From positions 1 through 64,000 of the forward strand of contig CAWHEU010000025.1 in assembly GCA_963828465.1 (NCBI GenBank): DNA of 64,000 nucleotides, in the 5' to 3' direction. Within the stretch, counting starts at the first letter, position 1. Each line of letters starts with the position of its first letter. The stretch comes from an uncultured Acidobacteriota bacterium (GTDB taxonomy: Bacteria; Actinomycetota; Acidimicrobiia; Spongiisociales; ZC4RG35). The translations under genes were made by a program, and so were the position numbers. Of the stretch, positions 26,566 to 56,265 are shown piece after piece. Below the pieces are notes generated by a model. That model saw nothing but the letters and a program-made list of their open reading frames with translations, did not search any database and was not told the origin of the DNA.

Positions 26566-26577
26566 GCAATCGATTGC
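26566..26577. promoter_or_regulatory. LacI-type operator, class B (GCAATCGATTGC)
   Basis: Perfect palindrome upstream of the ABC ATPase genes; identical copy at 51995. Confidence 0.7.
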
Positions 26578-26691
26578 GCAATGGAAGGGCACAGGGAGGA
26601 CGGCGGTGAAGGCAGCTAGCCGGTGGTCGCATGACATACTGGTCGGCGTGACCTCGATCGGCGCTAGGGATTGGCCGCACGGGGTGCGGTC

Positions 26692-27909
26692 GTGACCACG
26701 AGTCACGTCGACATCGACACCACACAGGACCGAGCCACCCAGCCCCTGGTGGCATCGGTCCGGGATCTCAAGGTCTATTTCCAGGCCAAGGCGGGGGTGG
26801 TGCACGCCGTGGATGGCGTCTCCTTCGACATACGCGATGGCGAGACCCTCGGGCTGGTCGGCGAGACCGGCTGTGGCAAGAGTGTGACCGCTCGCTCCTT
26901 CATCCGTCTCGTGCCGAGCCCTCCCGGGATCTACGCAGGCGGTGAGATCGATTTCTGGTCGACCGAGGCACGCAAGAACGGCATGGGTCCGATCGACCTC
27001 CTCCAGATTCCCCATGACGAGATGCTCGAGATCCGCGGAGATCGGATCGCGATGATCTTCCAGGACCCGGGCAAGGCGCTCAACCCGGCCCTCTCGATAC
27101 GGAGCCAGGTCGCAGAGGTCTTCTACCAGCACCGTTCCGAGGACATCCTCGAGCCCTTGGGTGGTGAGAACGCGCCCCTTCTCATCCGCCGCGCCGCCCG
27201 TCAGCAGTCGAACAGCTTCGAGCGATTCCTGCTCAAGCTCCCTCCGTGGCGGGCCAAGACAGAAAAGTTGAGAGAGCGAGTCAACGTGTTCGTCGCCGAC
27301 GCCCTCAAAGAGACCCAGATCCCCAATCCACGGGCGATCATGGACAACTATCCCCACGAGCTGTCGGGCGGGATGAAACAGCGAGTGCTCATCGCCCAGG
27401 CCCTGGCCTGCAATCCCGACCTGCTGATCGCCGACGAGCCCACGACAGCGCTGGATGTGACCATTCAGGCGAGGATCCTCGAGCTGATCGCCGAGTTGCA
27501 GCAGCGTCTCGAGACGTCGGTGCTCTATATCAGCCACGACCTCTCGCTGGTCAAGGAGATCTGCGATCGCGTGGCCGTCATGTATGCCGGGCGGATAGTC
27601 GAGACAGGGACAACCGAGGAGGTGTTCAGCGATCCCAAGCACCCCTACACGAGAGGTCTCATGGCCGCCGTCCCATCCGCCCTCCACAAGAGGGGCGAGC
27701 TCGCAGCGATCGAGGGAACGGTCCCTGAACTGGTCGACCCGCCCCCGGCATGCCGGTTCAATACCCGCTGCCCCTTCGCCGTCGAGATATGCCGAACCAC
27801 CGACCCGGGGCTGGTGATGGTGGGGGCGGAGCACACGGTTGCATGCTTCGCCTACGACACGAGTGATGGCTCCGTCGTCTTACCCACGCTGACCCGGTGG
27901 GTCTCATGA
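26692..27909 (+). CDS. Dipeptide/oligopeptide ABC ATPase (DppD/OppD-like)
   Basis: [35 protein letters not shown]-terminal CRFNTRC...C...C. Confidence 0.92.
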
Positions 27910-29348
27910 CATCCGTGACTGCCGAACAAGGAGGACAGCCGCCGGCGGCAGCCCAACGGGCGGTCATATCGGTGCGCGGGGTCGAGAAGTACTTCCCGAT
28001 CAAGGAAGGCACCCTGCAGAGGGTGGTGGGCAATGTGCGGGCGGTCGACGGTGTCTCCTTCGAGGTTCGTCCCGGCGAGACCATGGGTCTCGTCGGTGAG
28101 TCGGGATGTGGCAAGACCACGCTCGGCCGCTGCATCAGCGGCCTGGCGCCGCCGACCGGAGGCAAGATCTATTTCAGGCTCCCCGACGAGGACGCCGCCA
28201 CGCTCGACTTGATCGACCCCATCCCGGAGGCCGATCGCACTGTGCAGCAACGCAAGCAGGTAGAGCGGATCGACGCGAATCACCGCGTGGACGTGATGTC
28301 GGGAAAGGCATGGCGGACGTATCGGCGCAACTGCCAGATCGTCTTCCAGGATTCCTTCAGCTCGCTCAACCCGAGACAGCTGGTCAAGGACCTCGTGGGC
28401 CGGCCCCTCCAAGTCCACAAGGAGGCATCCGGCCAGGAGCTCATCGAGCGTGTCGTGTCCCTGCTGGAGAGCGTCGGTCTCGGTCGCCAGCACCTCTACC
28501 GCTACCCCCATCAATTCTCCGGGGGTCAGCGACAACGGATCTCTATCGCTCGAGCCCTCGCCCTCGACCCCGAGTTCATCGTCCTCGACGAGCCGACGAG
28601 CGCTCTCGATGTCTCGGTGCAGGCCCAGATCCTCAACCTACTTCACGAACTGCAGAAGGATCGTGGTCTTACTTACCTGTTCATCAGTCACGACCTCGGC
28701 GTCGTGAGGCTGATGAGCGATCGGATCGCCGTCATGTACCTGGGCAAGGTCGCTGAATACGGCACTGCCAGCGAGCTCTTCGAAGACCCCCGTCACCCGT
28801 ACACCGACGCTCTCCTCGCCGCCAACCCCGACATCCGCGCAGAGGTCTCCGTGATGAAGGGCCTCAAGGGTGCGGTACCCAATCCGGCCAACCCGCCGGA
28901 AGGCTGTCGCTTCCATACCCGGTGCCCGGTGGCTACCCCGGCCTGTGGGTGGGAGGTCGACGACGCAGTGGCGTGGCTCCAGGCCCGTGAGTTACTGGCA
29001 GCGGGTCTCGCCGACGTGCGGCGCCGATCGAACTTCGACGCCACATTGGTTTTCCACGACGAGGAGTCGGCGTCCGCGGTGGTTAGGGCAATTCAAGATG
29101 GTGATATGCCGCCGGCCATGAAGGCGGCGCTCGAGACAGTGACCACCGATGGCAGCAGCCTGGACATCAGGTTCTTCCCGGTGGAACCAGTCGAGCTCGA
29201 GGATGTCGGTGACGGACATCTGACCGCCTGCCTGCTCCACACCGAGCGACGCCATCAGACCTGGCCCCCTCAGTCGAGCGCCGATAACAGCAGCCGAACG
29301 GCAGCGAACCCCAGCAGCGCGAGCACGAGAAACTCGAGTACCCGCTGA
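27906..29348 (+). CDS. Dipeptide/oligopeptide ABC ATPase (DppF/OppF-like) with insertions
   Basis: [36 protein letters not shown]. Confidence 0.9.
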
Positions 29349-30010
29349 TTCAGCCGGCGCCCGATGCGAATGCCGATCGCCGTCATGACGGTCACGGGGA
29401 CGATGGCCCACAACGCCTGAACGGTTCGCTCCGGGGTGAAGGCTCCGAGGATCACCAGGGTCACCAACTGGATCACTCCGAAGACCTGGAAGGTGAGGCT
29501 CATCATGTGGATGAACGACGGGCGGCCGAGACGGATGGCGTGCATGTAGGTCGCGATGAGAGGTCCTGCAGTCCCGGTGGCACCGAGGAGTCCTCCTCCC
29601 ACCAGGCCCATGGGGGCGGCCATCCGGCGAGCGGTCTCCCGCTCCAGCACGAAATGGGGGTCCGCCAGGTGGCGCCAGATGTATCCCAGGATCACAACGG
29701 CGATGATCGCCGAGAGGATCCGATCGTCCACCTCAGTGAGGAGCCAGGTCCCCGCGATGGTCGCCGGGATACCGACGATCAGGAACGGCGTCATTACGAA
29801 CCCTGTGCCGCGGCCGCCGGCGCGGTGCTCCCATAGCAACCAGCCGTTGGACACCAGGTTCCCCAGGGACAGGACCACCACAGCCAGTTCCACACTGGCG
29901 ATTCCGGCGATGAAGGGCACCGCCAGAAGCGGCCCGCCGATGCCGGTCACGCCTTTGATCAAATAGGCCCCCGCGATCACCAGGATCACGAGAACCGCTT
30001 CGGTGGTCAC
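29270..30010 (-). CDS. TauE/SafE (TSUP) family membrane protein
   Basis: IKGVTGIGG and LLGATGTAGP repeats; multiple hydrophobic helices. Confidence 0.85.
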   Translation of the reverse strand: MTTEAVLVILVIAGAYLIKGVTGIGGPLLAVPFIAGIASVELAVVVLSLGNLVSNGWLLWEHRAGGRGTGFVMTPFLIVGIPATIAGTWLLTEVDDRILSAIIAVVILGYIWRHLADPHFVLERETARRMAAPMGLVGGGLLGATGTAGPLIATYMHAIRLGRPSFIHMMSLTFQVFGVIQLVTLVILGAFTPERTVQALWAIVPVTVMTAIGIRIGRRLNQRVLEFLVLALLGFAAVRLLLSALD

Positions 30011-30075
30011 TGGCTAGGCCGGTCCGAGATCGCGGTCGCCTCGACTCGCTGCCGATGCGCAGCCGACAGGCAGGT

Positions 30076-30564
30076 CTACCCCAGCGCCTTCGTGAGGTCC
30101 GGCGGGTTGGCTCCGATCGCCCGCAGGAGCCCGAGCTCGTCCCCGAAGTACCAGGCCTCGGCGATGACGCCATCTTCGACACGCCACAGGCCGACCTCGA
30201 CCACGTCTATGTGTTCACCGGTGGCCGGGATCCCATACAGCGATCCGGTGTGGGTCCCGACCACGCGAAATATCCCCCAAACCTTGTCGTTCTTGGCCGT
30301 GAGGTCGAGGAGAACGTTCTCACGGTCCCTCATCGACTCGTCGTCCATGCCCTTGGGACCCTCGCTCTCCCAGAGATCGCCGATGTGGGTGAAGCCGGCG
30401 CGGTGGCGCTTGAAGCCAGGAGCCAGGAAAGGGCCACGCTCCGATACCTTCGCCACCCGGTAGGCGGCCACTACCGCAAGGGCCTTCGCCTCCTCCTCTG
30501 TGCAAGTGCACTCGCTGGAGCCGAATATCGAGATGTGCGGATGTTCCACGAGGGCCACGATCAC
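30076..30564 (-). CDS. SnoaL-like / ester cyclase family protein
   Basis: GTHTGSLYGIPATG...WRVEDGVIAEAWYFGDELGLLRAIG. Confidence 0.8.
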   Translation of the reverse strand: MIVALVEHPHISIFGSSECTCTEEEAKALAVVAAYRVAKVSERGPFLAPGFKRHRAGFTHIGDLWESEGPKGMDDESMRDRENVLLDLTAKNDKVWGIFRVVGTHTGSLYGIPATGEHIDVVEVGLWRVEDGVIAEAWYFGDELGLLRAIGANPPDLTKALG

Positions 30565-31613
30565 AGCTCCACGATGGGTCGGACCGCCTCACGAGACTCG
30601 AGTGCGGCGAGGGCATCACCTACGGATTCGAGCGGATACACATGTGTGACCAGCGGGCTCAAGTCCACCTTGCCCGAGCGCATGAGAGCGATCATCGCCG
30701 GATACGCGTTTGGGCTGGATCGAATCCCCATGAGGTCTACCTCGTCGAGAGTGAGACGATCGACATCGATCTCGGACGGCTTGCCGCCGGTGAGTCCGAG
30801 CAGAGCGATCCTGCCGCCGCGGCGAACTGCGCCAATGGCCTGAGCAGGCACGTCCGGGTTTCCCGTGCAGTCGAAGACGTAATCGACCCCGCGCCCTCCG
30901 GTGAGACGACGCACTCCGGCGGCCGGGTCCTCCTTCTCGTAATCCACTACGTCGTCACAGCCCATCTTGGCGGCAAGGTCGAGTCTGCTACCCCGCCCGA
31001 CCATGATCAGTTGCGCAGCCCCTGAGGCCGACGCCACAGCCGCGGTGAGAAGGCCGAGGAGACCTGGTCCGAAGACCGCCACACTCGACCCGGGCAGGAA
31101 TTCGACCCTTCGCAGGGCATGCACCGTGAGCGACCCTTGATTCACCAGCGCCCCCTCCAGAGGACTGACCGAGTCGGGCAGCTTGTGCAGCATCTGGGCA
31201 GGTCTGACGGCGAATTCGGCCAACGCACCCGGGGCGGTGTGTCCATACAGGCGATACCCCGGAGTACCCGATTTCTCGCATAGGTTGTACCTCCCCTGAC
31301 GGCACATGGGACACCGACCACAACCGACGTGGTTCTCGGCCACCACCTTGTCGCCAGGCTGCAGCTCCAGATCGTCGAGACCCTCGCCGAGGGCAACCAC
31401 CTCCCCCGACCACTCATGGCCCATGACGAAGGGCAATGACGGGGGCCAGCCACGCTTCTCGAAGGCACCGTGGACCATCTTCAGGTCGGTGCCGCACAGA
31501 CCGCATGCCCTCACCCTGAGCAGGACCTCGCCCGCTTCCGGTTCGGGGACATCGACGTCCTCCACCGAGAGGTCGTTCCATCCCTTCAACACTGCGGCCC
31601 GCATGGTGGTCAC
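30561..31613 (-). CDS. Zn-dependent medium-chain alcohol dehydrogenase (sorbitol/threonine DH-like)
   Basis: GLCGTD, GHEWSG, CGRCPMC...C structural Zn site, GPGLLG. Confidence 0.9.
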   Translation of the reverse strand: MTTMRAAVLKGWNDLSVEDVDVPEPEAGEVLLRVRACGLCGTDLKMVHGAFEKRGWPPSLPFVMGHEWSGEVVALGEGLDDLELQPGDKVVAENHVGCGRCPMCRQGRYNLCEKSGTPGYRLYGHTAPGALAEFAVRPAQMLHKLPDSVSPLEGALVNQGSLTVHALRRVEFLPGSSVAVFGPGLLGLLTAAVASASGAAQLIMVGRGSRLDLAAKMGCDDVVDYEKEDPAAGVRRLTGGRGVDYVFDCTGNPDVPAQAIGAVRRGGRIALLGLTGGKPSEIDVDRLTLDEVDLMGIRSSPNAYPAMIALMRSGKVDLSPLVTHVYPLESVGDALAALESREAVRPIVEL

Positions 31614-32392
31614 GAACTTCCTCCGGCTTCGGGGGCCCGCTCCGCCAGGCTCTTCCACACCTCATCCACCTCACTCACGATGTGCTCGGCCACCGCGTCG
31701 ATGATCTCTCCAGCACGCTCCTCGGTGATCGAGTCGGGTGTTCCATACCAGCCCTCGGCCGCCACCTCCCTGAAATCCTTCATGATGGGAAACACGTCGC
31801 GACGCCGGAAGAGCGCGTGTCCATCTGTGGCCCGGTCGATCGCAGCACCGTCCACCTCCCCGCCCAGCCTCACCAGCGCGGGATCGTGAGCCAGGATCGC
31901 CGCCGTCTCCATCGACCCGGCATGGGTGAACTCCATCTCGTCGGGGAACAGCGCGTTGGTGATCACATGCGACTCGGCGACGATCACACGCAAGGGAAGC
32001 TTCTGCTGGGCCCGGTCGGCGCCCAGTCGGATCGCGGTGGAGTTGCCCTCGTGCCAGTTGACGATGAGAACCCTCACCACGCCGGCATTGGCCAACCCCT
32101 CGCAGACCTCCACCAGGAGCGTCGCCAAAGTATCAGGACTTATGCTCAAGGATCCCGGCCAGGGAAGGTGATAGGACGCCACGCCCACCGGGGAGATGGG
32201 CACTACCGGAGCCTCGAGTCGCTCACCGACGCGGAGGGCGATGGTGAGGGCGGCAAAGGCATCCGTGCCCAGGGGGAGATGACCCCCGTGCTGCTCGATG
32301 CTGCCCGTCACCAGCACGGCCGTCCCCCGACCCAAGGCGTCCTGTGCTTCGGGTTGGGTCATATTGGCGAGAAGCATGTGCTCGCGGCTCAC
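31610..32392 (-). CDS. Creatininase family amidohydrolase
   Basis: GSIEQHGGHLPLGTD, NWHEGN, HAGSMET. Confidence 0.88.
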   Translation of the reverse strand: MSREHMLLANMTQPEAQDALGRGTAVLVTGSIEQHGGHLPLGTDAFAALTIALRVGERLEAPVVPISPVGVASYHLPWPGSLSISPDTLATLLVEVCEGLANAGVVRVLIVNWHEGNSTAIRLGADRAQQKLPLRVIVAESHVITNALFPDEMEFTHAGSMETAAILAHDPALVRLGGEVDGAAIDRATDGHALFRRRDVFPIMKDFREVAAEGWYGTPDSITEERAGEIIDAVAEHIVSEVDEVWKSLAERAPEAGGSS

Positions 32393-32428: not shown

Positions 32429-32440
32429 ACAAACGGTTGT
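32429..32440. promoter_or_regulatory. LacI-type operator, class B (ACAAACGGTTGT)
   Basis: In the short gap between the LacI stop and the creatininase start. Confidence 0.65.
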
Positions 32441-32470: not shown

Positions 32471-33520
32471 TCAGGTCGGGGCAGGCGCCGTCGAGCCCCG
32501 AACCACCAGCTCCGGCGCCGCAAGGTGGGTCTCGGCGGGCCGGCCTGGATCCGCGATTGTCTCCAGCAAGAGATTCGCCGCCATCGAGCCCAGGTTGTTC
32601 TGGGAGATGTGGACTGTCGTGAGCGGTGGTGAGAACCGGTCGCCGTACGGCATGTCGTTGAAGCCGACCACCGAGACGTCTTCTGGACACGATCGCCCGA
32701 CTTCCCGGATGGCATCGATCGCACCCAACGCGAGCCGGTCGTTGGCGGCGAGCACAGCAGTGGTGTCGGGACGCTCCTCGAGCAGGTCACTCGTCACCCG
32801 GTAACCCTCCTCCTCGGTGTGACGGTTGGCAAAGCCGTGACTCCCGCTCAGACCCGCTTCCTGGAGCGTCTCTTCGAACGTCCCGAGCCGATTGACGGTG
32901 GACGAGACGTCTTCCGGTCCTCCGACGTGCACGATGTTGCGATGGCCAAGCGAGAACAGGTGCTCCACCGCCAGACGGGTCCCGGTGCGGTCATCGGGGA
33001 GCACGGCGCTGATCTCGCGGCCTTCGGCCCCACGATTGAAGAGCACCACCGGGATTCCTTCGTCGACGAGCCAAGCCAGAACGGCGTCGTCTTCCCTGGC
33101 CACCCCGTACAGAAGGCCATCTGCCTGAACTCCGAGCATGGCAGACACTTGAGACTCGGCGTGCTTCGGGTCGTCGTCGGTGCTGGCGAGTATCAGCGAG
33201 TACCCGTGGGCATAGAGGACGTCGCCGGCACCGCGGGTGATACCCGCCTGATAGAGATTGGCCACGTCGGGAACGACCATCCCGACCACGAGAGTTCGTC
33301 CGGTGCGTAGGGCGCGGGCGATGGTGTTGCGGCGATAACCGAGTTTTCGGGCCACCGCGCGGATTCGCTCGTCGGTGTCCTGGGTGATCCGCCCTGCGGC
33401 GGCCTGGTCGTTGAGGACGCGGGAAACGGTGGACACATGCACGCCGGCCTCGCGGGCGACGTCACGCAACGTCGGCGGCTTGCCCGCTCGCGTCTCGCCA
33501 TTTCCACCAGGAGTACTCAC
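32471..33520 (-). CDS. LacI family transcriptional regulator (regulon B)
   Basis: PTLRDVAREAGVHVSTVSRVLN, NTIARAL, VSVVGFND, PPLTTV; start probably GTG 33520. Confidence 0.93.
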   Translation of the reverse strand: MSTPGGNGETRAGKPPTLRDVAREAGVHVSTVSRVLNDQAAAGRITQDTDERIRAVARKLGYRRNTIARALRTGRTLVVGMVVPDVANLYQAGITRGAGDVLYAHGYSLILASTDDDPKHAESQVSAMLGVQADGLLYGVAREDDAVLAWLVDEGIPVVLFNRGAEGREISAVLPDDRTGTRLAVEHLFSLGHRNIVHVGGPEDVSSTVNRLGTFEETLQEAGLSGSHGFANRHTEEEGYRVTSDLLEERPDTTAVLAANDRLALGAIDAIREVGRSCPEDVSVVGFNDMPYGDRFSPPLTTVHISQNNLGSMAANLLLETIADPGRPAETHLAAPELVVRGSTAPAPT

Positions 33521-33569: not shown

Positions 33570-34772
33570 TTACGCCTGAGCGCCACCCGTATCCGGAAGA
33601 AACCTCCAGGAGAACAAGGCCGCAGCTACCAGGACGCCCGCCACGAACAGAAAAGCCACGACTCTGCCGAATCCGGCGAACAGGCCCGTGACTACCAGCG
33701 GTCCGGTGATCAAGCCGAGATCCCCGACGAATCGAAAACGGCCCAAATGCGATCCGACTCGAGCCGGGTCGGTGATATCCCCCAGGATCGTGGCCGCAAC
33801 AGGGACCGCGAAGCTGGCCAGCGACATGACGACGATGGCAGCGATCCAAAGGGCAACAGTGGGCTGAAGCGTGAGAAGCGCGACACCGAAGGCTTGGATG
33901 AACAGACCCGGCACGAGCACGGACTTTCTCGAGAGTCGATCGGACAACCGGCCACCCACGAGCGTCCCCGCGAACCGCGCCAGCCCCCCTACGCCCAGGG
34001 CGAGCCCAATGGCTGCAGTGCCCAGGCCGAGGTCGTCGGCTCCGATGATCGGCACCATCGTCTGAGAGACAGAGCCCAGAGTGAGGAAGACGGCGAAAGA
34101 CACGCTCTGCAGGACCAGGAGCGGCAGGAAGGATCGGCCCCCTGGGTCAGCAAGACCGCGATCGCCCGCCCGGGCGGCCGACGCCGGAGGGGGCCGGTTC
34201 GACCGGGCCGTCAACAAGACGAGAACCACGATCCCGGCGGCTCCGGCGCCTACGAACATCGCAACCCGCCAGCCACCGATGGATGCGATCAAACCGGCCG
34301 TCGCCGGCCCGATGGCCTGCCCGCCCAGCAAGGCAGCCGAGAAGATCGCCATGGACGTGCCTCGATGACTGTCGCCGGACACAGTCGAGAAGAAGGTCAT
34401 CCCCGTGGCGTTGGTAGTGGCCGAGCAGATCCCGAGCAGGAAAGAGGCAACGTAGACCACGAGTGCCACCCAGGAGAGCCCGAGGAGCAGGCTGCCCAGA
34501 GCCACGCCTCCCGCTGACAGTGCCATGAGGTTGATAGCCCTCACCCTGTCAGCGAAATGGCCGCCCGGCAGGTCGGCCACGAGTCTGCCCAAGGCGAACA
34601 CGGTCGTCACGAGCCCCAACTGAAAGGTCGACATCGACAGCTCACGGCCGAACTCGGGCAAAAGGGCGACCCGGAAGAAGGCGACTGCAGTGAGGGTGAG
34701 AACGGCCGCTGAAACGAGGCTCGGCTCCCGCAGCCCGGTCGTGGCGCGCAGACGACGGATGTAATCTCGCAT
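33570..34772 (-). CDS. MFS transporter
   Basis: Motif A-like GHFADRVR and GRLSDRLSRK; about 12 hydrophobic segments. The 678-aa ORF has a spurious N-terminal extension. Confidence 0.85.
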   Translation of the reverse strand: MRDYIRRLRATTGLREPSLVSAAVLTLTAVAFFRVALLPEFGRELSMSTFQLGLVTTVFALGRLVADLPGGHFADRVRAINLMALSAGGVALGSLLLGLSWVALVVYVASFLLGICSATTNATGMTFFSTVSGDSHRGTSMAIFSAALLGGQAIGPATAGLIASIGGWRVAMFVGAGAAGIVVLVLLTARSNRPPPASAARAGDRGLADPGGRSFLPLLVLQSVSFAVFLTLGSVSQTMVPIIGADDLGLGTAAIGLALGVGGLARFAGTLVGGRLSDRLSRKSVLVPGLFIQAFGVALLTLQPTVALWIAAIVVMSLASFAVPVAATILGDITDPARVGSHLGRFRFVGDLGLITGPLVVTGLFAGFGRVVAFLFVAGVLVAAALFSWRFLPDTGGAQA

Positions 34773-34790
34773 GGATCGAAAGGGCATGCT

Positions 34791-34802
34791 ACAAACGTTT
34801 GT
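34791..34802. promoter_or_regulatory. LacI-type operator, class B (ACAAACGTTTGT)
   Basis: Perfect palindrome in the MFS/LVIVD divergent gap. Confidence 0.7.
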
Positions 34803-35999: not shown

Positions 36000-36024
36000 G
36001 CGATCGAGGAGACCCGATTCGACA

Positions 36025-37032: not shown

Positions 37033-38175
37033 CAGCGAGCGGACCCGTGGCGTCCTTCAACCCCGAGTTCGAGTCCCTGACCTGCTTCGACTGCGGTGCC
37101 CATCACGAAATCGGACGACTCCACTCCGTGTGCGAGTCTTGCGGTCTGCCCCTGCAGGTCAACATGAGGTTGAAGCCCGACACCGACCCGGCTTCGGTGA
37201 TCGACCCTTCCATCCACTCCCTTTGGCGCTACTCGGCGGTTCTACCCGTCCTCCCCGAAGCGGCCATCTCGCTCACGGAGGGGTGGACACCACTGGTGAG
37301 GCCGACGCGCGAACCTGGGTGAAGGACGAGGCCCGGAACCCGACCGGGTCCTTCAAGGCGCGCGGCATGTCGATGGGGGTGTCCGCGGCCGTCGCCCTCG
37401 GCGTCCAACGCCTCGTCGCCCCATCGGCAGGGAACGCTGCGGGCGCGCTTCGGCGTATGGGGCCGCAGCCGGCGTGGAAGTGCTGGTGGCGATGCCCGAG
37501 GACACGCCTCGGCAGTTCGTCGAGGAATGCCGGCAGTACGGGGCACAGGTGGAAATGGTCCCCGGCACGATCGCCGACTCGGGCAGATGGTTGGCCGAGC
37601 ACCGATCGCCGCACGACTTCGACCTATCCACCCTCAAGGAGCCATTCCGCGTCGAGGGCAAGAAGACGATGGGGTACGAGCTGTGGGAGCAGTTCGACGG
37701 CGACCTGCCCGACGTGATCGTCTACCCGACCGGAGGTGGGACGGGCCTGGTCGGGATGTGGAAGGCCTTCGACGAGATGGAGGCCATGGGATGGATCGGG
37801 GCGAATCGGCCCCGACTCGTATCGGTGCAATCAGACGGGTGTGCCCCCGTGGTCGAGGGGTTCAGGACGAAAAGCCGTCGCACCGAGCCCTGGCCCGATC
37901 CCCGGACCACGGCCTACGGGCTTCGGGTGCCCAACCCCATCGCAGGGTTCATCTGCCTCCGCGCTCTCCGGGAGACCGGGGGCACGGCGATCGCAGTCCC
38001 GGAATCCGACATCGAGACGGCTTCGGCCGCGATGTCCGCCGCCACGGGTGTCGACGCCTGCCCCGAGGCGGGGGCGGCGTGGGCCGCCTTCGAGACTCTG
38101 CGCGATCGTGGCTGGATCGGGCCCGAGGAGAGGACGCTCGTGTTCAACACCGGGACCGGTCTCAAGTACCGCTGA
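37029..38175 (+). CDS. Threonine synthase-like PLP enzyme (fold type II); frameshifts near 37300 and 37450
   Basis: N-terminal CxxC..CxxC, EGWTPL, NPTGSFKARG, PSAGNA, EGKKTMG, YPTGGGTG, FNTGTGLKY. Confidence 0.85.
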
Positions 38176-46375: not shown

Positions 46376-46387
46376 AGGAGGGACTCC

Positions 46388-48778: not shown

Positions 48779-49833
48779 CGGAGGGCCCCCGCTTGCTCCA
48801 CCATCGGCGCCACCGGCACAGCCTCGCCGTTTCGCTTCGACGACTCGAGAGCGGCATGGACCACGGCGAGGGCTCTGATCGCTTCGAGGGCACCCACCTC
48901 GATCTCCGCCTCCCCTCTGATGGCGAGAGCGAACTCGTCTAACTGCTCCCGGAACATGTCGGTGTGAGGCATGTCGACGGGAGGTCGGGTCGACTCCCGG
49001 TATGCCTGGCTGACGAGAGTGCTCTTCGAGTCCACGAAATGGGACTCATCCCAGTTGTTGAAGTCGAGGTCGTAGAAGAGGTTGGCCTCCGTGCCCTGCA
49101 GGCGCAGCTGATAGACCCCTGGCGAGGCCCAGCCGGTGCCCAGATACCCGAGAGGGCCGGACTCGAACTCCAGAATCGACATGATCGCGTCCGGCACCTC
49201 CGACTTGGTGTACAGCTTGCGCGCATGGCTCGACACTGAAGCGACCGGGCCGAGGAGATACTGGAGATTGTCGGCGTGGTGGACACCGAGCTGGATCATC
49301 GCCCCGCCTGGGCTCTTGTCGGCGTACCAGCGCCAGGTGTCGGTGGTCAGCTCCAGGCCGCGCTCGTTCGAGAAGTTGGCCTCTGCGAGCGACACCTGGC
49401 CGATCTTGCCGGTCTCTATCCACTGCTTCATGGCCCGGTGCCCCCCGAGTCGTCGGGCACTGTGACCGACTGCGAAAGCTTTGCCGGATGCGGCCGCCGC
49501 TCTGGCTATCTCACCGGCGTCCTCCATCGTGTGGGCTATCGGCTTGTCGGTGTAGACGGCCTTGCCCGCATCGAGACTCTCGAGGATGACGCTCTTGTGC
49601 GTGTCATTCGGGGTGGTGACCAGCACTCCCTCGATCTCGGGGTCGGAGAGCAACTCGTCGAGGGAGGATGCCGCCCGGAGAACGCCGAACTCCTCCTGAA
49701 ACGCTGTGCGACTCTCGGGTGAGCGTGAGAAGCAGCTCGCCAGCTCGATCACCGTGCCTCGTTGTGCCCCCCTGGCGAGCACCCTGGCCCAGCGGCCCAG
49801 CCCTATGGAGGCGAGTTTGACCCGCTCACTCAT
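48775..49833 (-). CDS. Gfo/Idh/MocA family oxidoreductase
   Basis: SIGLGRWA, VTTPNDTH, YTDKPIA, MIQLGVHHAD. Confidence 0.88.
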   Translation of the reverse strand: MSERVKLASIGLGRWARVLARGAQRGTVIELASCFSRSPESRTAFQEEFGVLRAASSLDELLSDPEIEGVLVTTPNDTHKSVILESLDAGKAVYTDKPIAHTMEDAGEIARAAAASGKAFAVGHSARRLGGHRAMKQWIETGKIGQVSLAEANFSNERGLELTTDTWRWYADKSPGGAMIQLGVHHADNLQYLLGPVASVSSHARKLYTKSEVPDAIMSILEFESGPLGYLGTGWASPGVYQLRLQGTEANLFYDLDFNNWDESHFVDSKSTLVSQAYRESTRPPVDMPHTDMFREQLDEFALAIRGEAEIEVGALEAIRALAVVHAALESSKRNGEAVPVAPMVEQAGALR

Positions 49834-50215
49834 CGGTCCCCTCCTCGTCGGTCTCGAGGAGAAGGTCGAGCTCCTCGATGTTGTTGGCGAAATCGTCGTG
49901 GGGGAAGAAACACACGAGGGACATCCGCTCGTCTGGATCGGCCATGGTTGCGTGCGGCGTCCCTGCGGGAATGCGGTACCAGGTCCCCGGGCCCACGGGG
50001 TGCACCACACCGTCCAGCCAGACCCGGCCGCGACCCGCTACCACGTACACGATCTCCTCGCTCTGCGGGTGGAGATGCGGTGATCTGGTGGGAACGTGCT
50101 CGATGACGACCTGGCGCACGGTCGAAGCACCCTGGCCCGCGGTCTTGAACGGGTCGGCGGTGGACCTACCGGGAAAGTCGCGAAAATCGAGCTGGCCCGG
50201 GCCGACAACGGTCAC
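49826..50215 (-). CDS. Cupin domain protein
   Basis: PHLHPQSEEIVYVVAGRG...IPAGTPH. Confidence 0.88.
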   Translation of the reverse strand: MTVVGPGQLDFRDFPGRSTADPFKTAGQGASTVRQVVIEHVPTRSPHLHPQSEEIVYVVAGRGRVWLDGVVHPVGPGTWYRIPAGTPHATMADPDERMSLVCFFPHDDFANNIEELDLLLETDEEGTDE

Positions 50216-50979
50216 GACCCGCGTCTCCGCAGCTTCAGGATGGACTCCACCGCGGTAGCGATCTCGTCGGCCACGGTGGCGGCGAACTGCCCGGCGCGCT
50301 CTTGGTCCGCCCAGGCCGGGTTCCCATACCAGCCGTCGTCAGCGATCTCGGTCACGTCTGTGATGTAGCCGTATACCTCTCGGGAGCGACGCATTGCGTC
50401 CAATTCATCGGCGCCTTCCGGCCGGGTCGGCTCCGTCACCCGACCCGAATGGAACAGGTCCGGATCGTGGGCAAGCACCGCCAGGGTCTCGATTCCGCCA
50501 CCATGGGTGAGCTCTCCCCCTGCGGGGGCGTAGATGCGCTGCGCCGTGTAACAGGCGTGCGCGGTGACGAACAGGACATCCTCGCGGTCCTGGACGTCGG
50601 TGGCCACGGCATCGAGCGAGGCGATGTTTCCCTCGTGCCAGTTGACGAAGACGAAGGTCCTCGCCCCCATCGCCACCAACTCCTCGCACAGGTTGGCCAG
50701 GTACGCCTCGAAGACATCCCGGCGTATCGAGATCGTGCCGGGATGCCCGGCGTGGATCGGAGTGACGCCGTAGGGGCCGGCGGACACGATGATGCCATCG
50801 AGGCGCTCGGCGAGCTCCTCGGCAACGAGCTCGGCAGCCATGGTGTCGGTGCCACAGGGCAGGTGCGGCCCATGCTGCTCGACACTCCCGAATGGCATCA
50901 CCACCATGCCCTTGCGACCAATCAACTCGGCCACGTCCGGTGAAGCGAGGTCGTTGATCGATCTGCTCGACATGCTCAA
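50212..50979 (-). CDS. Creatininase family amidohydrolase
   Basis: GSVEQHGPHLPCGTD, NWHEGN, HGGGIET. Confidence 0.88.
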   Translation of the reverse strand: MSMSSRSINDLASPDVAELIGRKGMVVMPFGSVEQHGPHLPCGTDTMAAELVAEELAERLDGIIVSAGPYGVTPIHAGHPGTISIRRDVFEAYLANLCEELVAMGARTFVFVNWHEGNIASLDAVATDVQDREDVLFVTAHACYTAQRIYAPAGGELTHGGGIETLAVLAHDPDLFHSGRVTEPTRPEGADELDAMRRSREVYGYITDVTEIADDGWYGNPAWADQERAGQFAATVADEIATAVESILKLRRRGS

Positions 50980-51968
50980 CCGATCTCCGCTGCTTCCGGA
51001 GTCACCACAGCGTGCAACGGCGGCTCCGAGTCGAGTATCCGGCGGGCTTCCGCCGCAGCCTGGCGTCGGAGAGCGAGCTCGCTCTCCTCGGTGTACCAGG
51101 ACATATGTGGCGTAAGTATCACCCGTTCCGCGACAGGCTCGAAGACGGAAACATCGGGTGGCTCGTGCTCGAATACGTCCAGTGCGGCAAAGCCAGGCCG
51201 GTTGTCTCTGAGCGCCGAGACCAGAGCTCCCGTGTCGATGAGCGATCCACGGGCAGTGTTCACGAGAACCGAGCCCTCCCTCATGGACCGCAGCTCGGCG
51301 GCGCCGAGCAGGTACCCCCGGGCCGGAGGGGGGGAATGAAGTGTGACCACATCGGAGCCGGCGAGCAGTTCGTCCACGCCTGCGAGACGACCCGGGGCAC
51401 CGCCGAGCGCCGTGGTCACGTCTGATGCCTCGACCGCCGGGTCAGAGACGAGGACGGCCTCGAAACCGAGGCCCGCGAGAAGCAGCGCGACCCGTCGCCC
51501 GATTCTTCCGAATCCGATGACACCCGCCGTCAGACTCGACGGAAGGCGGAGCGGCCGCAGATCGGCGACGCCCCAGGACCCCTCCCTCAGCTTCCGGTCG
51601 GCGGTGGTCAGACGGCGAAGCGAGGCTAGAACCAAAGTGGTGGCATGGAGGGCGACGGCGTCCATGCCGTAGTCGGGCACGTTGACCACCCACATCCCCA
51701 ACGACCGTGCCCGGTCGAGGTCGACGCCGTCTACCCCGACCCCGAGACGGACGATGGCCCGGCTTTCCAGCTTCTCGAGGGTCCCGGCATCGAATCGCGG
51801 TGCGGCTCCGGCCAGGATCACATCCGCGCCGGCGGCGACCGCGATGACGTCTTCGGCCGATTGCCCCGGGCCGGAGACCAGCTCGACGTCACCGAGAACT
51901 CCACGTTCGACGTCGAAATCGCCGAACCGCGTTCCGAGAATCGCCACCTTGGGCCGACGTGAATCCAC
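50976..51968 (-). CDS. D-isomer-specific 2-hydroxyacid dehydrogenase (SerA/CtBP-like)
   Basis: GVGVDGVD, NVPDY, GFGRIG, VNTARG, LDVFEHEP, LTPHMSW. Confidence 0.9.
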   Translation of the reverse strand: MDSRRPKVAILGTRFGDFDVERGVLGDVELVSGPGQSAEDVIAVAAGADVILAGAAPRFDAGTLEKLESRAIVRLGVGVDGVDLDRARSLGMWVVNVPDYGMDAVALHATTLVLASLRRLTTADRKLREGSWGVADLRPLRLPSSLTAGVIGFGRIGRRVALLLAGLGFEAVLVSDPAVEASDVTTALGGAPGRLAGVDELLAGSDVVTLHSPPPARGYLLGAAELRSMREGSVLVNTARGSLIDTGALVSALRDNRPGFAALDVFEHEPPDVSVFEPVAERVILTPHMSWYTEESELALRRQAAAEARRILDSEPPLHAVVTPEAAEIG

Positions 51969-51994: not shown

Positions 51995-52006
51995 GCAATC
52001 GATTGC
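51995..52006. promoter_or_regulatory. LacI-type operator, class B (GCAATCGATTGC)
   Basis: Perfect palindrome in the divergent gap; identical to the 26566 site. Confidence 0.7.
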
Positions 52007-52035: not shown

Positions 52036-54309
52036 GTGGACGACATCCCCCATTTCGAGCCGCTCTCTCATCTTCGTCTGGAGGACCATCGGCTGGTCAC
52101 AGGCTCGGGACGCTTTGTCGCCGACCTGGCGCCCCCGGAGACGGTCCATCTCGCCTTCGTTCGCAGCACCGAGGCCCACGCCCGCATCACCGGCATCGAC
52201 ACGCATTCGGTCGATTCCCCCGATGTGGTGGGGATGTTCACCGCAGCCGACCTCGACCTGGCGGACATCCCGGGTGACAGCACGGCCGTCCCTGCGCCCG
52301 ACTTCCCCCGTCCCCACCTCGCGTCGGAGAAGGTGCGATATGTAGGCGAGCCATTGGCGGTGGTCGCTGCCAACACAGCGGCAGCGGCAGCCGACGCCGC
52401 CGACTTGATATGGGTCGACTACGAGATCCTCCCTGCGGTCGTCGATCCCGCGGCGAGCCTCGAGGACGAAATCATTCTGCACGAGGCTGCGGGGACCAAT
52501 GTGGTGAGTCGTTCGGACCTGGCTGCAGGTGAGCCGAAAGAGAGCTACGAGGTGGTAGCCGAGATCGACGTGACCAATCAGCGGCTGGCGCCGAACTCGA
52601 TCGAACCGCTCGTCATCCTCGCTGTGCCCGAAGACGAGGGCCGCCTCACGGTGTACGTGAGCCACCAACGACCACACGGTGTGAAGGCCCGTCTATGCCA
52701 GCTGCTCCCGTATGACCCGGACAAGCTGCGAGTCGTAGTCCCCGACGTCGGCGGAGCCTTCGGGATGAAGGGAATGACCTATCCCGAGCACACGGTGACA
52801 GTGGCTGTGGCCCTCCGGCTCGAGCGGCCTGTCATCTGGGTCGAGCGACGTCGCGAGCATCTGAGCGGCGGAACCCACGGGCGGGGCTCGGTGCACAAGG
52901 TCAGGCTCTCGGGGACATCGGCCGGCCGCGTCCAACGAGCGGAGATCGACGTCCTCGCCGACGTCGGCGCCTACCCACACAACGGGGCCACGATCCCCGT
53001 TTTCTCGCGGTTGGTCGCCTTCGGCCTGTATGACATCGAGAGTGCGGCGCTGACGACCACCTCCGTCGTCACCAATACGGCTCCCACGGGCTCGTATCGC
53101 GGTGCGGGGCGTCCCGAAGCCGCCTATGCCATCGAGAGGGCGATCGATGCCTTCGCCCATGCCGCCGGTCTCGACCCGGTCGAGGTCCGTCTGACCAACT
53201 TCATCCCGTCCGAATCTCTCCCCTACCGCACCGCCACCGGCGCCCTCTATGACTCGGGTGACTATGCGGCGGCGTTGCGCCGTGCTGTCGACCTCGTCGG
53301 GCTCGACGAGCTACGGGAAGAACAGAAGGCGCGCCTGGCAGACGGGCGCGACCCGATCGGCATCGGGTTCGGTGCCTTCGTCGAGCGGGCCGGTGGAGCG
53401 GTCGACGCCGGCGAATACGGACGGGTCGAGGTCGACCAGGACGGAAGGGTCACCGTGCGCACCGGATCGGCTTCCTCCGGTCAGGGCCACGAGACGGCGT
53501 GGGCACAAGTGGCGGCGGCGGCCTTGGGTCTCAACCCGGACGCCGTTACATACATCGCCGGTGACACCGACCAGGTGGCCCGGGGCGCCGGGACCTTCGC
53601 CAGCAGATCGGCTCAGATAGGAGCGGCGGCCATCTGGCGCACGGCTCAGGTTGTGCGACAACGGGCTATCGATCTGACGGCCGAGCTCCTCGAGGCGTCG
53701 CCGGCCGACGTGGTGCTCTCCGATGGCACGTTTTCCATCGCCGGCGTGCCCGGCACCGAGATGGGGTGGGCCGAGGTCGCGGCCGCGGCACATAGCCGCG
53801 GGATCGACCTGAGCGAAGAGGAGTGGTTCGTCCCCGGCGCTCAGACATTCCCGTACGGGGTCCATGTCGCCGTCGTGGAGGTCGCGCTCGAGACCGGCGA
53901 AGTCAGGCTCGATCGCCTCGTCACCGTCGACGACTGCGGAAACGTGCTCAATCCGATGATCGTGGAAGGCCAGCTCCACGGCTCCCTCATTCAGGGGGTC
54001 GGCCAGGCTTTGTACGAAGGGGTCCAGTATTCGGATCAGGGCCAGCTTCTCACCTCGACTCTCATGGACTACGCCTTACCCCGGGCCAGCGACGCGCCCC
54101 CGATCACAGCCGAGCGGTTGGTCCACCCGGCGCCATCGAATCCCCTAGGCGTCAAGGGCACCGGTGAGGCCGGCTGCATCGGGGCACCCCCTGCGATCGT
54201 CAACGCCGTCCTGGACGCTCTCGCTCCGTATGGCGTCACCGATCTTCAGATGCCGCTCCGACCGGCAACGGTGTGGGCCGCCCTCTCGGCATCTACTGTC
54301 CGGCCATAA
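52036..54309 (+). CDS. Xanthine dehydrogenase-family molybdopterin-binding large subunit (CoxL/CutL-like, not form I CODH)
   Basis: RLEDHRLVTGSG, DVGGAFGMK, SYRGAGRPEA, GQGHET, GQLHG, GVKGTGEAG. Confidence 0.92.
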   Translation: MDDIPHFEPLSHLRLEDHRLVTGSGRFVADLAPPETVHLAFVRSTEAHARITGIDTHSVDSPDVVGMFTAADLDLADIPGDSTAVPAPDFPRPHLASEKVRYVGEPLAVVAANTAAAAADAADLIWVDYEILPAVVDPAASLEDEIILHEAAGTNVVSRSDLAAGEPKESYEVVAEIDVTNQRLAPNSIEPLVILAVPEDEGRLTVYVSHQRPHGVKARLCQLLPYDPDKLRVVVPDVGGAFGMKGMTYPEHTVTVAVALRLERPVIWVERRREHLSGGTHGRGSVHKVRLSGTSAGRVQRAEIDVLADVGAYPHNGATIPVFSRLVAFGLYDIESAALTTTSVVTNTAPTGSYRGAGRPEAAYAIERAIDAFAHAAGLDPVEVRLTNFIPSESLPYRTATGALYDSGDYAAALRRAVDLVGLDELREEQKARLADGRDPIGIGFGAFVERAGGAVDAGEYGRVEVDQDGRVTVRTGSASSGQGHETAWAQVAAAALGLNPDAVTYIAGDTDQVARGAGTFASRSAQIGAAAIWRTAQVVRQRAIDLTAELLEASPADVVLSDGTFSIAGVPGTEMGWAEVAAAAHSRGIDLSEEEWFVPGAQTFPYGVHVAVVEVALETGEVRLDRLVTVDDCGNVLNPMIVEGQLHGSLIQGVGQALYEGVQYSDQGQLLTSTLMDYALPRASDAPPITAERLVHPAPSNPLGVKGTGEAGCIGAPPAIVNAVLDALAPYGVTDLQMPLRPATVWAALSASTVRP

Positions 54310-54316
54310 CGATTGT
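54305..54316. promoter_or_regulatory. Degenerate class B operator (CATAACGATTGT)
   Basis: Right half-site ATTGT(GC) conserved; overlaps the upstream stop codon, 20 nt before the next gene. Confidence 0.4.
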
Positions 54317-54335
54317 GCAAACCGAAAGGGCGATC

Positions 54336-55248
54336 ATGGGAATCGATCCAGAGCATGTGACCATCGTCGAGGAGGTTCCCGGCTCAGACATTCCGGTCGA
54401 GCTCGAGATATGTCGAGACCTGGGACGGGCTCTACGCCCCGATCGGACTGCGACTCCCACCGGGACCGGGACCCCATCCCCTCGTGCTGCTCGCCTCCGG
54501 CAATGGAGGAGGGGGCATGGCCTGGATCAGGGACGCCGTCGCCAACCGGGGCTACATCATGGACCGATTGCTGGAGCAGGGCTACGCGTGCGCCTGGATC
54601 CGTTATCGCACCGAGGTGGAGCTCGGCTACGAGAACGGTGGACATCTCGTGCGGGACACACGGCAGGGCCGCGACATGTTCAACCGATCCCCCCTCGAGT
54701 ATGAAGACGAGATCGCCATCGTCGAGCAGCTCAAGCAAGACCCGCGCATCGACCCTGACCGCGTTGGGCTCATTGGGATGAGTCACGGTGGGGAGATGGT
54801 CCTCAAGATCGCCTCTGAGTATCAGGGCCTCGCGGCAGCGGTCGCCTCCGAGCCCGCCTCGCATGAGTTCCTCTCCTTGAGCCCGGACAACACTGCCTTT
54901 GTCGACCCGGAGACCGGTCTCCGCAACATCGAGGAGATGCAGATGGTCGAGACCGAGAAGGTGCGATCACGTATCGACATGGCGAAGGCGACGGAGCGGA
55001 TCGCCACGATCGACACACCGATCCTCGTCATGGGCCGGGAAGATGATCACCTCCAGGGGATATTCCGCACCAGCTACGACCTTCTGGCGGAGGCAGGCAA
55101 GCCTGTCGAGTGGGTCAGCTGGGACCACGATCTCCACGGATACGTCTATCCGCAGCGCGGGCCTGACGGCGAATATGAGGTCAATGAGGTCCAGGAGGAA
55201 GCGATCGCCGGTGTCCTCTCCTACCTCGGCCGGCACCTAAAGGGGTAA
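54336..55248 (+). CDS. Alpha/beta hydrolase (dienelactone hydrolase/S9-like); frameshift near 54408
   Basis: RVGLIGMSHGG nucleophile motif, GREDD, DLHGY; N-terminus MGIDPEH lies in another frame. Confidence 0.78.
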
Positions 55249-55257
55249 GAACGCCGG

Positions 55258-56193
55258 TCAGGTCAAACCGTCAGAGACGTCCTTGTTCTCGGGCTCGAGG
55301 GTGACATTGGTGCCTTCGGCCTGTCGGGACAACATGGACGCGAAGTCCTGGCCGCCGAAGCCACGTCCCACTCCATCCATGACGATCTGATGGACCAGGG
55401 CGGCCGTCGGAAGAGGGACATCGAGGAGGCGACCCGCCTCGAGACCGAGCTCGAAGTCCTTGCGAAGCAACTCCCAGGTGAACGTCGGCGTGTAGTCGAG
55501 ATTCACGAAGGCCGGTGTCTTGTAGCGGGTGAAAGTCGACCCCATCACGCTGTCGTTGAGGAAGTCGAGGAAGTCGGCGCGGGAAACGCCTGCCGCCTCG
55601 GCCAGGACAGTGATCTCGGCCATCGACTGCGTCACGACACCAAGCATGAGGTTATGGCAGATCTTGACCAGCCGGGCCTCGTCGCCCTCTCCTACGTATG
55701 TGACCTTTCGCCCGAACAGCTCGAGGTACGGGAGCGCGGTCTCGAACGCCTTCATCGGGCCGGACACCACAGAGGTGAGCCGTCCGGCTTTGACGACTTT
55801 TGGATTGCCAGAAACTGGTGCCGCCAGCACCGCAGTGCCCAGCTCTCCGGCCCGTTCGGTGAGCGTCTCGGAAGTGGGGCCGTCGATCGTGGTCGAATCG
55901 ACGATTATCTGCGGGCGACTGTTCGGCTGTGAGAGAACTCCTTCATCACCGATCGTCACCTCGAGCACATCCTCCGGCCCCGCCACCATCGTGAATACGA
56001 TGTCGCGCTCGGCTAGCTCGGCGGGCGAGTCGACGATCTTTGCCCCCTTGTCGGCCAATGGCTCAGCCTTGGCCCGGGTTCGGTTGTAGACCCACAGGTC
56101 CACGTTGGAGGCGAGAAGCCGTGCGACCAGGGCGGCACCCATCCGACCGGTGCCTATCCAGCCCACCCGGTGCGGATATTTGTCGTCAGCCAT
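55258..56193 (-). CDS. NAD(P)-dependent beta-hydroxyacid dehydrogenase (3-hydroxyisobutyrate/6PGDH family)
   Basis: GWIGTGRMG, YNRT, APVSGN, catalytic KICHN, LRKDFELG. Confidence 0.9.
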   Translation of the reverse strand: MADDKYPHRVGWIGTGRMGAALVARLLASNVDLWVYNRTRAKAEPLADKGAKIVDSPAELAERDIVFTMVAGPEDVLEVTIGDEGVLSQPNSRPQIIVDSTTIDGPTSETLTERAGELGTAVLAAPVSGNPKVVKAGRLTSVVSGPMKAFETALPYLELFGRKVTYVGEGDEARLVKICHNLMLGVVTQSMAEITVLAEAAGVSRADFLDFLNDSVMGSTFTRYKTPAFVNLDYTPTFTWELLRKDFELGLEAGRLLDVPLPTAALVHQIVMDGVGRGFGGQDFASMLSRQAEGTNVTLEPENKDVSDGLT

Positions 56194-56253
56194 CGTCGGT
56201 GCACTCCTCTCGCCTCTGCGCGCTGCCAGAACGAAGGTCCGACCTTGCCTCAC

Positions 56254-56265
56254 GCAATCGTTTGT
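56254..56265. promoter_or_regulatory. LacI-type operator, class B (GCAATCGTTTGT)
   Basis: Upstream of the dehydrogenase; last class B site seen. Confidence 0.65.

Follow-up and report, generated by a model that had tools for sequence, protein, structure and literature searches.

In the genome bin of an uncultured member of the Acidimicrobiia, a block of about 30 kb (26566-56265) carries the same short palindrome in one gene gap after another, which raises the question of whether the block forms a single regulon, and under which regulator. The window, i.e. the whole stretch of DNA analysed, is the first 64 kb of contig C25 (64.6% G+C), and the metagenome-derived bin comprises 3.07 Mb in 29 contigs (92% complete, 4.81% contamination). 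The nearest public records with the same LacI gene are mostly labelled as metagenome-assembled genomes of Acidimicrobiia, and some bear other labels such as Acidobacteriota or Actinomycetota. A first-pass annotation had proposed that the palindrome marks almost every promoter of a self-contained regulon, governed by the LacI-family protein encoded at 32471-33520. In this study, we put at roughly 0.85 the probability that nine of these palindromes (O1 to O9, Table 1) are operators of this protein and, almost certainly with it, of its 98%-identical paralogue on contig C20. The block is best read as a predicted autoregulated LacI repressor regulon of about 27-31 genes. Enrichment, placement in gaps, conservation and linkage thus uphold the proposed LacI regulon, while its self-containment and a further site at 2141 did not stand.

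The gene map of the block was made from Pfam and NCBIfam matches, with start regions read directly from the sequence; operon boundaries and transcription units are, throughout, those that we infer. All ten words quoted by the first-pass annotation were found where it had placed them. Four exact copies of the 12-mer RCAAWCGWTTGY are present in the window (26566, 34791, 51995 and 56254) against an expectation of 0.01, and none of 100 dinucleotide shuffles reached four. With up to two mismatches allowed, 22 matches were obtained against 12.5 expected, and the largest shuffle gave 20; the loose pattern is therefore mostly noise and could not carry the claim alone. A symmetrised weight matrix of 20 bp was trained on the nine block sites, so that those nine match it by construction. 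When the window was scanned, exactly nine matches of at least 16.7 bits were found, all within 26566-56265, and the next-best scores were at 2048 (13.2 bits), 2141 (10.8) and 12122 (9.3). The site at 54305 (O8), which has three mismatches to the 12-mer, was picked up by the matrix and by conservation only.

For the genome-wide search, 10 third-order-Markov simulated genomes served as the null. At 20 bits or more the genome holds 11 matches against 0.1 simulated, at 16 bits or more 15 against a simulated mean of 3.2 (maximum 7), and at 12 bits or more 48 against about 31. Five of the matches of at least 20 bits lie outside the training set (C2:139119, C20:1743, C20:4104, C20:9966 and C10:9333). 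The exact 12-mer occurs at eight places in the 3.07-Mb genome, of which four are in the block, two in a copy of part of it on C20 and two on C2; a reversed control pattern has no occurrence in that genome. Lower down, C13:113757 (16.8 bits) lies at the 3' end of a short-chain-dehydrogenase open reading frame (ORF); neither this match nor C10:9333 was assigned to the regulon, and the simulated genomes give about three matches of at least 16 bits.

All nine block sites are located in intergenic gaps, O8 overlapping a TAA stop codon at 54307-54309. By a hand sum, roughly 5% of the block is gap sequence (about 1.4-1.5 kb out of 31 kb); the motif is confined to this non-coding part and strongly enriched over coding DNA. 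The site centres are about 10-112 nt upstream of inferred start codons. CG forms the centre in eight of the nine sites and CC in O6, and the arms are CAA and TTG, which supports the description of the words as CG-centred palindromes of the LacI-operator type. The sites also mark almost every promoter, as had been claimed: among about 13 inferred units between 25751 and 56193, one is without a site of its own. This unit comprises the alpha/beta hydrolase and GFO/IDH/MocA genes (47678-50010), which follow a 201-bp gap scoring -5.2 at best, and the pair may be read through from O7. Candidates at 2048, 2141, 12122, 13287, 41900 and 48146 were rejected as members on score; the further site proposed at 2141 falls within the noise that is already visible at 12 bits.

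The gene at 32471-33520 is a complete LacI-family gene by its Pfam, NCBIfam and PDB matches, and it has sites on either side. Its product has an N-terminal helix-turn-helix, GVHVSTVSRVLN (Pfam PF00356, 4.1e-15, 55.7 bits against a cut-off of 27; 59.7 bits in a genome-wide PF00356 search), the hinge NTIARAL, and a periplasmic-binding-protein-like effector domain (Peripla_BP_3, 1e-38; Peripla_BP_1, 1.1e-24) that aligns to solved LacI-family cores over residues 80-347. Of the full-length PDB matches, CcpA (E 7e-41) and PurR (1e-38) are the top-ranking ones with a solved LacI-family structure. The likeness to these two covers helix-turn-helix, hinge and two-lobed sensor as well as the CG-centred operators, and the hinge 'lgyrrntiaralrtgrt' aligns with 'LGYRPNAVARGLASKKT' of CcpA, 'ARAL' lying on 'ARGL'. 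In PurR-DNA structures, the hinge leucine inserts at the central CpG. The helix-turn-helix has His where CcpA and PurR have Ser (GVH vs GVS/NVS), and the targets in the block are clustered, unlike those of CcpA and PurR, which are dispersed over the genome and are controlled with a protein or purine co-factor. NCBIfam returned LacI-type models only, with scores so far below the equivalog cut-offs (RbsR-like 206.6 vs 382; PurR 182 vs 501) that the protein is an orthologue of none of them. O3 is located 4-19 nt upstream of the start of a major facilitator superfamily (MFS) transporter gene, whose end is separated by 49 nt from the LacI start, both genes being on one strand; this arrangement suggests that the two genes are co-transcribed.

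In the absence of inducer, a LacI dimer would be bound to each palindrome, each helix-turn-helix reading one RCAAW half-site and the hinge helices meeting over the central CG. The bound repressor would block transcription starting in the narrow intervals that separate divergent or tandem operons, until a small molecule, imported by the Dpp-type ATP-binding cassette (ABC) or the MFS transporter or derived from what they import, binds to the C-terminal sensor and brings about release. Through O3, in front of the MFS-LacI operon, LacI would control its own synthesis, and the regulon would extend beyond the block to a peptidase/Dpp cluster on contig C2. Repression (rather than activation), the operon boundaries, the inducer and binding by this LacI are all predicted.

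Conservation was assessed in 44 loci around LacI homologues of public genomes (L005-L048) and in 29 same-genus DNA matches (L050-L078), the window itself being L049; three loci from unpublished genomes (L060, L068 and L069) and the window's own loci were left out of the counts. The two 600-bp flanks of each site were placed by blastn, and a site was scored as kept if a matrix match of at least 14 bits was present within 200 bp of the expected position. All nine sites were kept in orthologous loci wherever both flanks are retained, the counts for O1 to O9 being 4/4, 33/33, 20/20, 17/17, 8/8, 8/8, 9/9, 8/8 and 4/4; O2 and O3, with 33/33 and 20/20, are the sites on the two sides of the LacI gene. 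The chance of such a match in a 400-bp span is about 0.001 (null 10.3 per genome). With at least one flank retained, the counts were 25/28, 34/37, 22/27, 28/29, 11/12, 11/12, 10/10, 9/14 and 6/9. Most misses are cases where the neighbour gene is absent or the match is to a paralogue; the five at O8 have one flank only, at 67-74% identity, and in four of these cases the genome lacks the LacI orthologue. When the gaps were aligned with MAFFT, no part of them was better conserved at O1-O4 than the palindrome, and flank identity there drops to about 70-75%. Among the 26 distinct sequences aligned at O1, each of the 12 columns shows at least 95% conservation, and the flanks are variable.

The regulon had been described as self-contained, under one LacI with one motif. 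This part of the description fails, for conserved high-scoring sites are also present on C20 and C2, and in relatives this motif also adjoins a second LacI clade. An inverted copy of C25:23099-36542 is located at C20:3-12767, with about 90% identity over 10 kb and 86% over the following 2.7 kb. This copy (locus L083) begins at the very end of contig C20, lacks the RibD_C-like gene, and has the same gene order, three corresponding sites and a LacI with 98% identity in the aligned part, whose recognition stretch is unchanged. On C2, one group of sites lies upstream of S15 X-Pro dipeptidyl-peptidase, amine-oxidoreductase and FrsA-like genes, and a second forms a cluster between another Dpp-type transporter and a luciferase-like monooxygenase gene. 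The two groups are conserved in 2/2 and 3/3 fetched relatives, in one of which C2-type and C25-type genes are adjacent.

The alternative that survives best is that the operators are shared, i.e. that several paralogous LacIs (the C20 copy and possibly a 42%-identical LacI on C27) read the palindromes in a small multi-repressor network, and not in a private regulon. We regard the odds on this as about even; it refines the best explanation and does not exclude it. In addition to the C20 copy, it is favoured by the second clade (LacI-B), which is 41-43% identical and present in many genomes of the genus. In six of the eight fetched loci (L085-L089 and L091), LacI-B and paralogues of the 3-hydroxyisobutyrate-dehydrogenase, MFS and LVIVD genes have sites of this motif beside them; the other two (L090 and L092) have no site of at least 13 bits, yet exact 12-mers are listed at G014:C125:3753 and G008:C53:31595. 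The O9 word GCAATCGTTTGT also accompanies the LacI-B-linked dehydrogenase paralogues in relatives. The motif can thus not be assigned to the 32471-33520 protein alone. Both clades have 'GVH.ST.SR.LN' in common, and 'GVH' in the helix-turn-helix is also found in distant homologues (L039 and L042, down to 40% identity), all with the motif adjoining. Six homologues at 32-36% identity carry 'VS' there, and five of them (L043 and L045-L048) are without a site, while L044 has one of 15.7 bits about 5.6 kb from the gene. One genome, G009, holds at least three 43%-identical LacI copies and 15 motif matches, and another, G010, has no LacI match at E<=1e-30 and no exact motif match. Taken together, the motif appears to track the LacI clade and not one protein.

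Two points limit the sharing of operators in this genome. For the C27 LacI, the only related word is GCACTCGTTTGT, with one mismatch, located 12 nt upstream of its start; a matrix match of at least 9 bits is absent within 3 kb, and its recognition residues differ (HPSTA vs HVSTV in the protein under study), so that the details of its specificity may be different. In principle, the C20 contig could derive from a co-binned close strain, given the contamination of the bin. This is countered by other bins that also contain two copies of the LacI locus (G008, G019, and L020 with L036 from one bin), and the C20 copy is therefore probably real paralogy and not mis-binning.

It is improbable, though a little less so than what follows, that LacI binds and activates at some or all of the sites, or that it needs its ligand as a co-repressor. 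Some sites are more than 90 nt from one flanking start (O1 from the ATPase gene, O4 from M24 peptidase gene a), and PurR, in contrast to most of the family, requires its ligand for DNA binding, according to passages of Ravcheev et al. (2014, PMC4052901). Most sites, however, are 10-60 nt from a start codon, as in the 45-60-bp gap at O3, and such gaps are too short for a promoter upstream of the operator, which fits steric repression. The targets are catabolic and uptake genes, moreover, for which induction by the substrate is the norm of the family in the same passages. An autoregulated LacI repressor remains the preferred reading.

It is very unlikely that a factor from another family, or the ArsR-type protein encoded at the right edge of the block, is the one that uses the sites and that the LacI gene is nearby by coincidence. 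In its favour, binding by the LacI is so far predicted from sequence, and the ArsR-family gene is the only other regulator gene among the scanned block ORFs. Against it, the motif has LacI-family architecture and is found beside LacI genes of both clades in many genomes, and homologous ArsR flanks that lack LacI also lack the site (L071). The ArsR gene has a perfect 16-bp palindrome of its own, TGACTTATATAAGTCA at 56336-56351, which is unlike the motif and lies within a promoter-like site at 56335-56364 (TTGACT, 18 nt, AATAAT) ending 6 nt before the ArsR ATG. This suggests a leaderless and autoregulated ArsR-AHSA1 unit; the ArsR gene is probably outside the control of the nine sites and is not counted as a target. 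Finally, chance words favoured by the lower G+C of intergenic DNA would agree with the modest excess of loose matches and with candidates in the noise range such as 2141, 12122, 41900 and 48146, but they can practically be dismissed in view of the shuffles, the excess at 20 bits, the palindromes standing out as conserved islands, and a match in every both-flank locus where chance would give one so rarely.

Several observations weigh against the LacI regulon proposed here. The genome holds eight LacI-family genes in the PF00356 search, and the assignment of the sites to this protein draws on adjacency and the helix-turn-helix signature. Two sites deviate from the regular form, O6 by its CC centre and O8 by a degenerate half-site. 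The match at C10:9333 (GCAATCGTTTGG, 21.7 bits; locus L080:2833) is located at the 3' end of a 5-enolpyruvylshikimate-3-phosphate synthase ORF, about 150 nt upstream of a cytidylate kinase gene among housekeeping genes, and may be due to chance. One genome (G005) has no LacI match at E<=1e-30, yet has three exact motif matches. At O7-O9 the loci are too similar, their flanks showing almost the same conservation as the sites, so that conservation says little there; more generally, the relatives are close kin, mostly of one genus, and the counts overstate independent support. A scan with an E. coli-type promoter consensus gave no promoter-like site in 26400-45500, and in 45200-57500 gave the ArsR site and one inside a coding region, with none near the operators.

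Table 1. Predicted operators and genes of the block in the window. Scores are those of the 20-bp matrix; operons are presumed.
Feature	Position	Strand	Sequence	Score (bits)	Context or evidence
O1	26566..26577		GCAATCGATTGC	22.5	divergent gap, RibD_C-like gene (start 26536, -) / first Dpp-type ABC ATPase gene (start 26671, +)
O2	32429..32440		ACAAACGGTTGT	22.6	30 nt past LacI stop; 36 nt upstream of creatininase-family gene 1 (start 32392, -)
O3	34791..34802		ACAAACGTTTGT	23.5	45-60-bp divergent gap, MFS gene (ATG 34787 or 34772, -) / LVIVD-repeat gene (ATG 34833, +)
O4	41971..41982		CCAATCGTTTGC	21.0	divergent gap, family-5 solute-binding lipoprotein gene (ATG 41919, -) / M24 peptidase gene a (GTG ~42086, +)
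O5	45298..45309		ACAAACGTATGC	19.7	18 nt upstream of dihydrodipicolinate synthase (DHDPS)-like gene (ATG 45279, -)
O6	45334..45345		GCAATCCATTGC	21.1	CC centre; 46 nt upstream of DHDPS-family gene (ATG 45392, +)
O7	51995..52006		GCAATCGATTGC	17.7	divergent gap, 2-hydroxyacid dehydrogenase gene (start ~51968, -) / molybdenum hydroxylase large subunit gene (GTG 52036, +)
O8	54305..54316		CATAACGATTGT	16.7	degenerate left half; on hydroxylase TAA stop; 19 nt upstream of dienelactone-hydrolase-like ATG 54336 (set by orthologues)
O9	56254..56265		GCAATCGTTTGT	21.9	60 nt upstream of 3-hydroxyisobutyrate-dehydrogenase-family gene (ATG 56193, -)
RibD_C-like gene	25751..26536	-			Pfam RibD_C 3.2e-07; left of O1
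Two Dpp/Opp-type ABC ATPase genes	26671..29348	+			Pfam ABC_tran and oligo_HPY in both; NCBIfam below cut-offs; right of O1
Presumed operon: creatininase-family 1, Zn-dependent alcohol dehydrogenase, SnoaL-like, TauE-like	29270..32392	-			Pfam; downstream of O2
LacI-family transcription factor gene	32471..33520	-			presumed repressor
MFS transporter gene	33570..34787	-			Pfam MFS_1 2.3e-44; start read from sequence; first gene of presumed MFS-LacI operon
Presumed operon: LVIVD-repeat protein, Amidohydro_2, threonine-synthase-like pyridoxal phosphate (PLP) enzyme	34833..38175	+			Pfam; right of O3
Presumed operon: family-5 solute-binding lipoprotein, DppB- and DppC-type permeases	38182..41919	-			SBP_bac_5 2.4e-64, BPD_transp_1 x2; left of O4
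M24 peptidase/creatinase-family gene a	42086..43258	+			Pfam Peptidase_M24 and Creatinase_N; right of O4
Presumed operon: DHDPS-like, ornithine-cyclodeaminase/mu-crystallin-family	43268..45279	-			Pfam; NCBIfam family-level only; left of O5/O6
Presumed operon: DHDPS-family gene, M24 peptidase b	45392..47662	+			Pfam; right of O5/O6
2-hydroxyacid dehydrogenase, creatininase-family 2, GFO/IDH/MocA oxidoreductase, alpha/beta hydrolase	47678..51968	-			Pfam; left of O7
Molybdenum hydroxylase large subunit (right of O7), dienelactone-hydrolase-like gene (right of O8)	52036..55248	+			Pfam; orthologue N-termini
3-hydroxyisobutyrate-dehydrogenase-family gene	55258..56193	-			Pfam NAD_binding_2 7.5e-35; start read from sequence; left of O9
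ArsR-family gene	56371-56763				right edge of block

The genes of the block are listed in Table 1, together with the sites, among which O5 and O6 are 36 bp apart from centre to centre. Two genes are broken in the window assembly. The threonine-synthase-like PLP gene (36921-38175) is interrupted by two frameshifts (36921-37301, 37301-37417 and 37474-38172), while L006 carries an intact orthologue of about 99% identity. Contigs from other samples have one extra base at 37300 and one at 37449, so that the breaks are single-base deletions, either population-specific or assembly errors. The dienelactone-hydrolase-like gene (54336-55248), whose orthologues start MAIDPE..VELRYLETWDG, has one frameshift; the frame changes after about 25 codons, and its ORF is for this reason listed only from 54484. 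The same gene is also split in L051, and the breaks in both genes suggest indel errors in these assemblies.

In two rhizosphere metatranscriptome runs, 6-7% of the sampled words were recovered. Several block genes are matched by contigs of about 200-450 nt with 92-99% likeness, and one contig spans 45113-45366 over O5 and O6. These matches are contigs, partly from relatives and possibly with DNA carry-over, and show neither transcription start sites nor regulation.

Three further elements were observed in the window. About 30 nt to the right of O4, before the M24 peptidase gene, a second conserved element (42008-42020, consensus TG(T)CAACCGATTC) is kept across 22 distinct sequences, and could be a promoter element or a degenerate half-operator. 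At 2048-2152, the weak palindromes CCAATCGATCGG (13.2 bits) and GCCATCGATTGT (10.8 bits) occupy a divergent gap before a GFO/IDH/MocA gene of an inositol-like cluster, which includes a xylose-isomerase-like barrel, a sugar-binding protein and an ABC transporter; with the block matrix both score within the noise, and they are possibly sites of another regulator. A second LacI-family gene of the window (about 12200-13234, +), located between an amidase gene and an operon for short-chain dehydrogenase, CoA-transferase and enoyl-CoA hydratase, has one-mismatch palindromes on either side, GCAAACGTTTTC at 12122-12133 and GTAATCGTTTGC at 13287-13298. Both score below 10 bits with the block matrix and may be that gene's own operators.

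Compared with known systems, the block is a regulon of a known LacI-family kind, large for a clustered one and atypical in content. In passages of Ravcheev et al. (2014, Front Microbiol 5:294, PMC4052901), which name seven taxonomic groups of Actinobacteria, an even palindrome centred on CG is given for 1173 of 1303 LacI-family factors, the sites fall between -140 and -30 of starts in more than 75% of cases, and 72% of the factors are autoregulated. The block shares these traits with the local LacI/GalR catabolic regulons described there and in RegPrecise: an even CG-centred palindrome, sites tens of nt upstream of starts, and an autoregulated repressor gene inside the regulated locus with transporter and enzyme genes under joint control. 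The evidence is also of the type given for those regulons, namely phylogenetic footprinting. In the same passages, a single operon is regulated by 31% of factors and two operons by 38%, and regulons of at most 20 genes make up 93%; the block, with nine operators, about 13 units and 27-31 genes in one locus, to which the C2 cluster is added, is larger than most. A 'global' LacI regulon is defined there by more than 15 target genes in at least seven operons and by multiple metabolic pathways, and the 27 genes between 25751 and 56193, in about 13 inferred units behind nine operators, are of that size. Carbohydrate use is controlled by 96% of the groups with an assigned pathway (PMC4052901), whereas the block has peptidases, amidohydrolases, cyclodeaminase- and DHDPS-family proteins and a peptide-type ABC importer. 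Among the papers listed on Acidimicrobiia and LacI (eight of 16), none deals with such a regulon, judged by titles and the starts of abstracts. For opines, the passages of a paper on mannopine regulation (PMC6341043) do not state the family of the regulator and lend no support to a comparison.

Among the block genes, no homologue of an opine oxidase or synthase was identified by Pfam and NCBIfam annotation. In opine and peptide catabolic islands, ABC importers with a family-5 binding protein (peptide/opine/nickel-type) are under a locally encoded repressor. The block recalls such islands in that a family-5 binding protein and DppBCDF-type subunits stand beside amino-acid-modifying enzymes, under one local repressor. 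The binding protein (40222-41919) has a lipobox, read from the sequence, and its nearest solved structures are dipeptide- and glutathione-binding proteins.

The enzyme families weakly suggest substrates derived from peptides or amino acids rather than plain sugars. Among them are M24 and X-Pro peptidases, S9-like hydrolases and ornithine-cyclodeaminase-family and DHDPS-family proteins, to which the threonine-synthase-like PLP enzyme, Amidohydro_2, the two creatininase-family hydrolases and the peptide-type importer are added. The trio of Zn-dehydrogenase, creatininase-family and GFO proteins weakly resembles the inositol enzymes IolM, IolN and IolG, far below NCBIfam cut-offs; the genes at 29270..32392 have only such sub-cut-off matches, e.g. 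IolM-like with 212 bits against 450 and IolN-like with 43 against 245. At the NCBIfam equivalog level no block enzyme reaches its cut-off except the threonine-synthase-like gene (PRK08197, 314.6 bits vs 303). The LVIVD protein gave a weak match to a haloalkylphosphorus hydrolase in the PDB sequence search and 'LVIVD repeat' clusters only in the protein atlas, and none of the NCBIfam, PDB sequence and protein atlas searches names a substrate. Proline-rich peptides as the substrate are a doubtful guess from these families.

Tentatively, and with rather more against than for it, a LacI clade marked by GVH (GVH.ST.SR.LN) may govern a two-locus catabolic island of more than 40 genes for peptide-like or amino-acid-conjugate substrates in uncultured soil Acidimicrobiia, with proline- or hydroxyproline-rich peptides as examples, and not carbohydrates. 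If true, the regulon would belong to the few of the LacI family that respond to a non-sugar inducer, and would be 'global' in size yet clustered, with paralogous repressors sharing one operator code.

The mechanism is a textbook one that brings no new principle, and the value of the finding therefore lies in annotation and ecology. If the reading is correct, the sites join the C2 cluster and about 30 enzyme and transporter genes of poor annotation into one co-regulated unit, and add to the small minority of LacI-family regulons unlike sugar pathways. The host lineage consists of soil actinobacteria without a cultured representative, known from metagenome bins; for these organisms the regulon would be a handle on what they eat, and its ligand would name the pathway.

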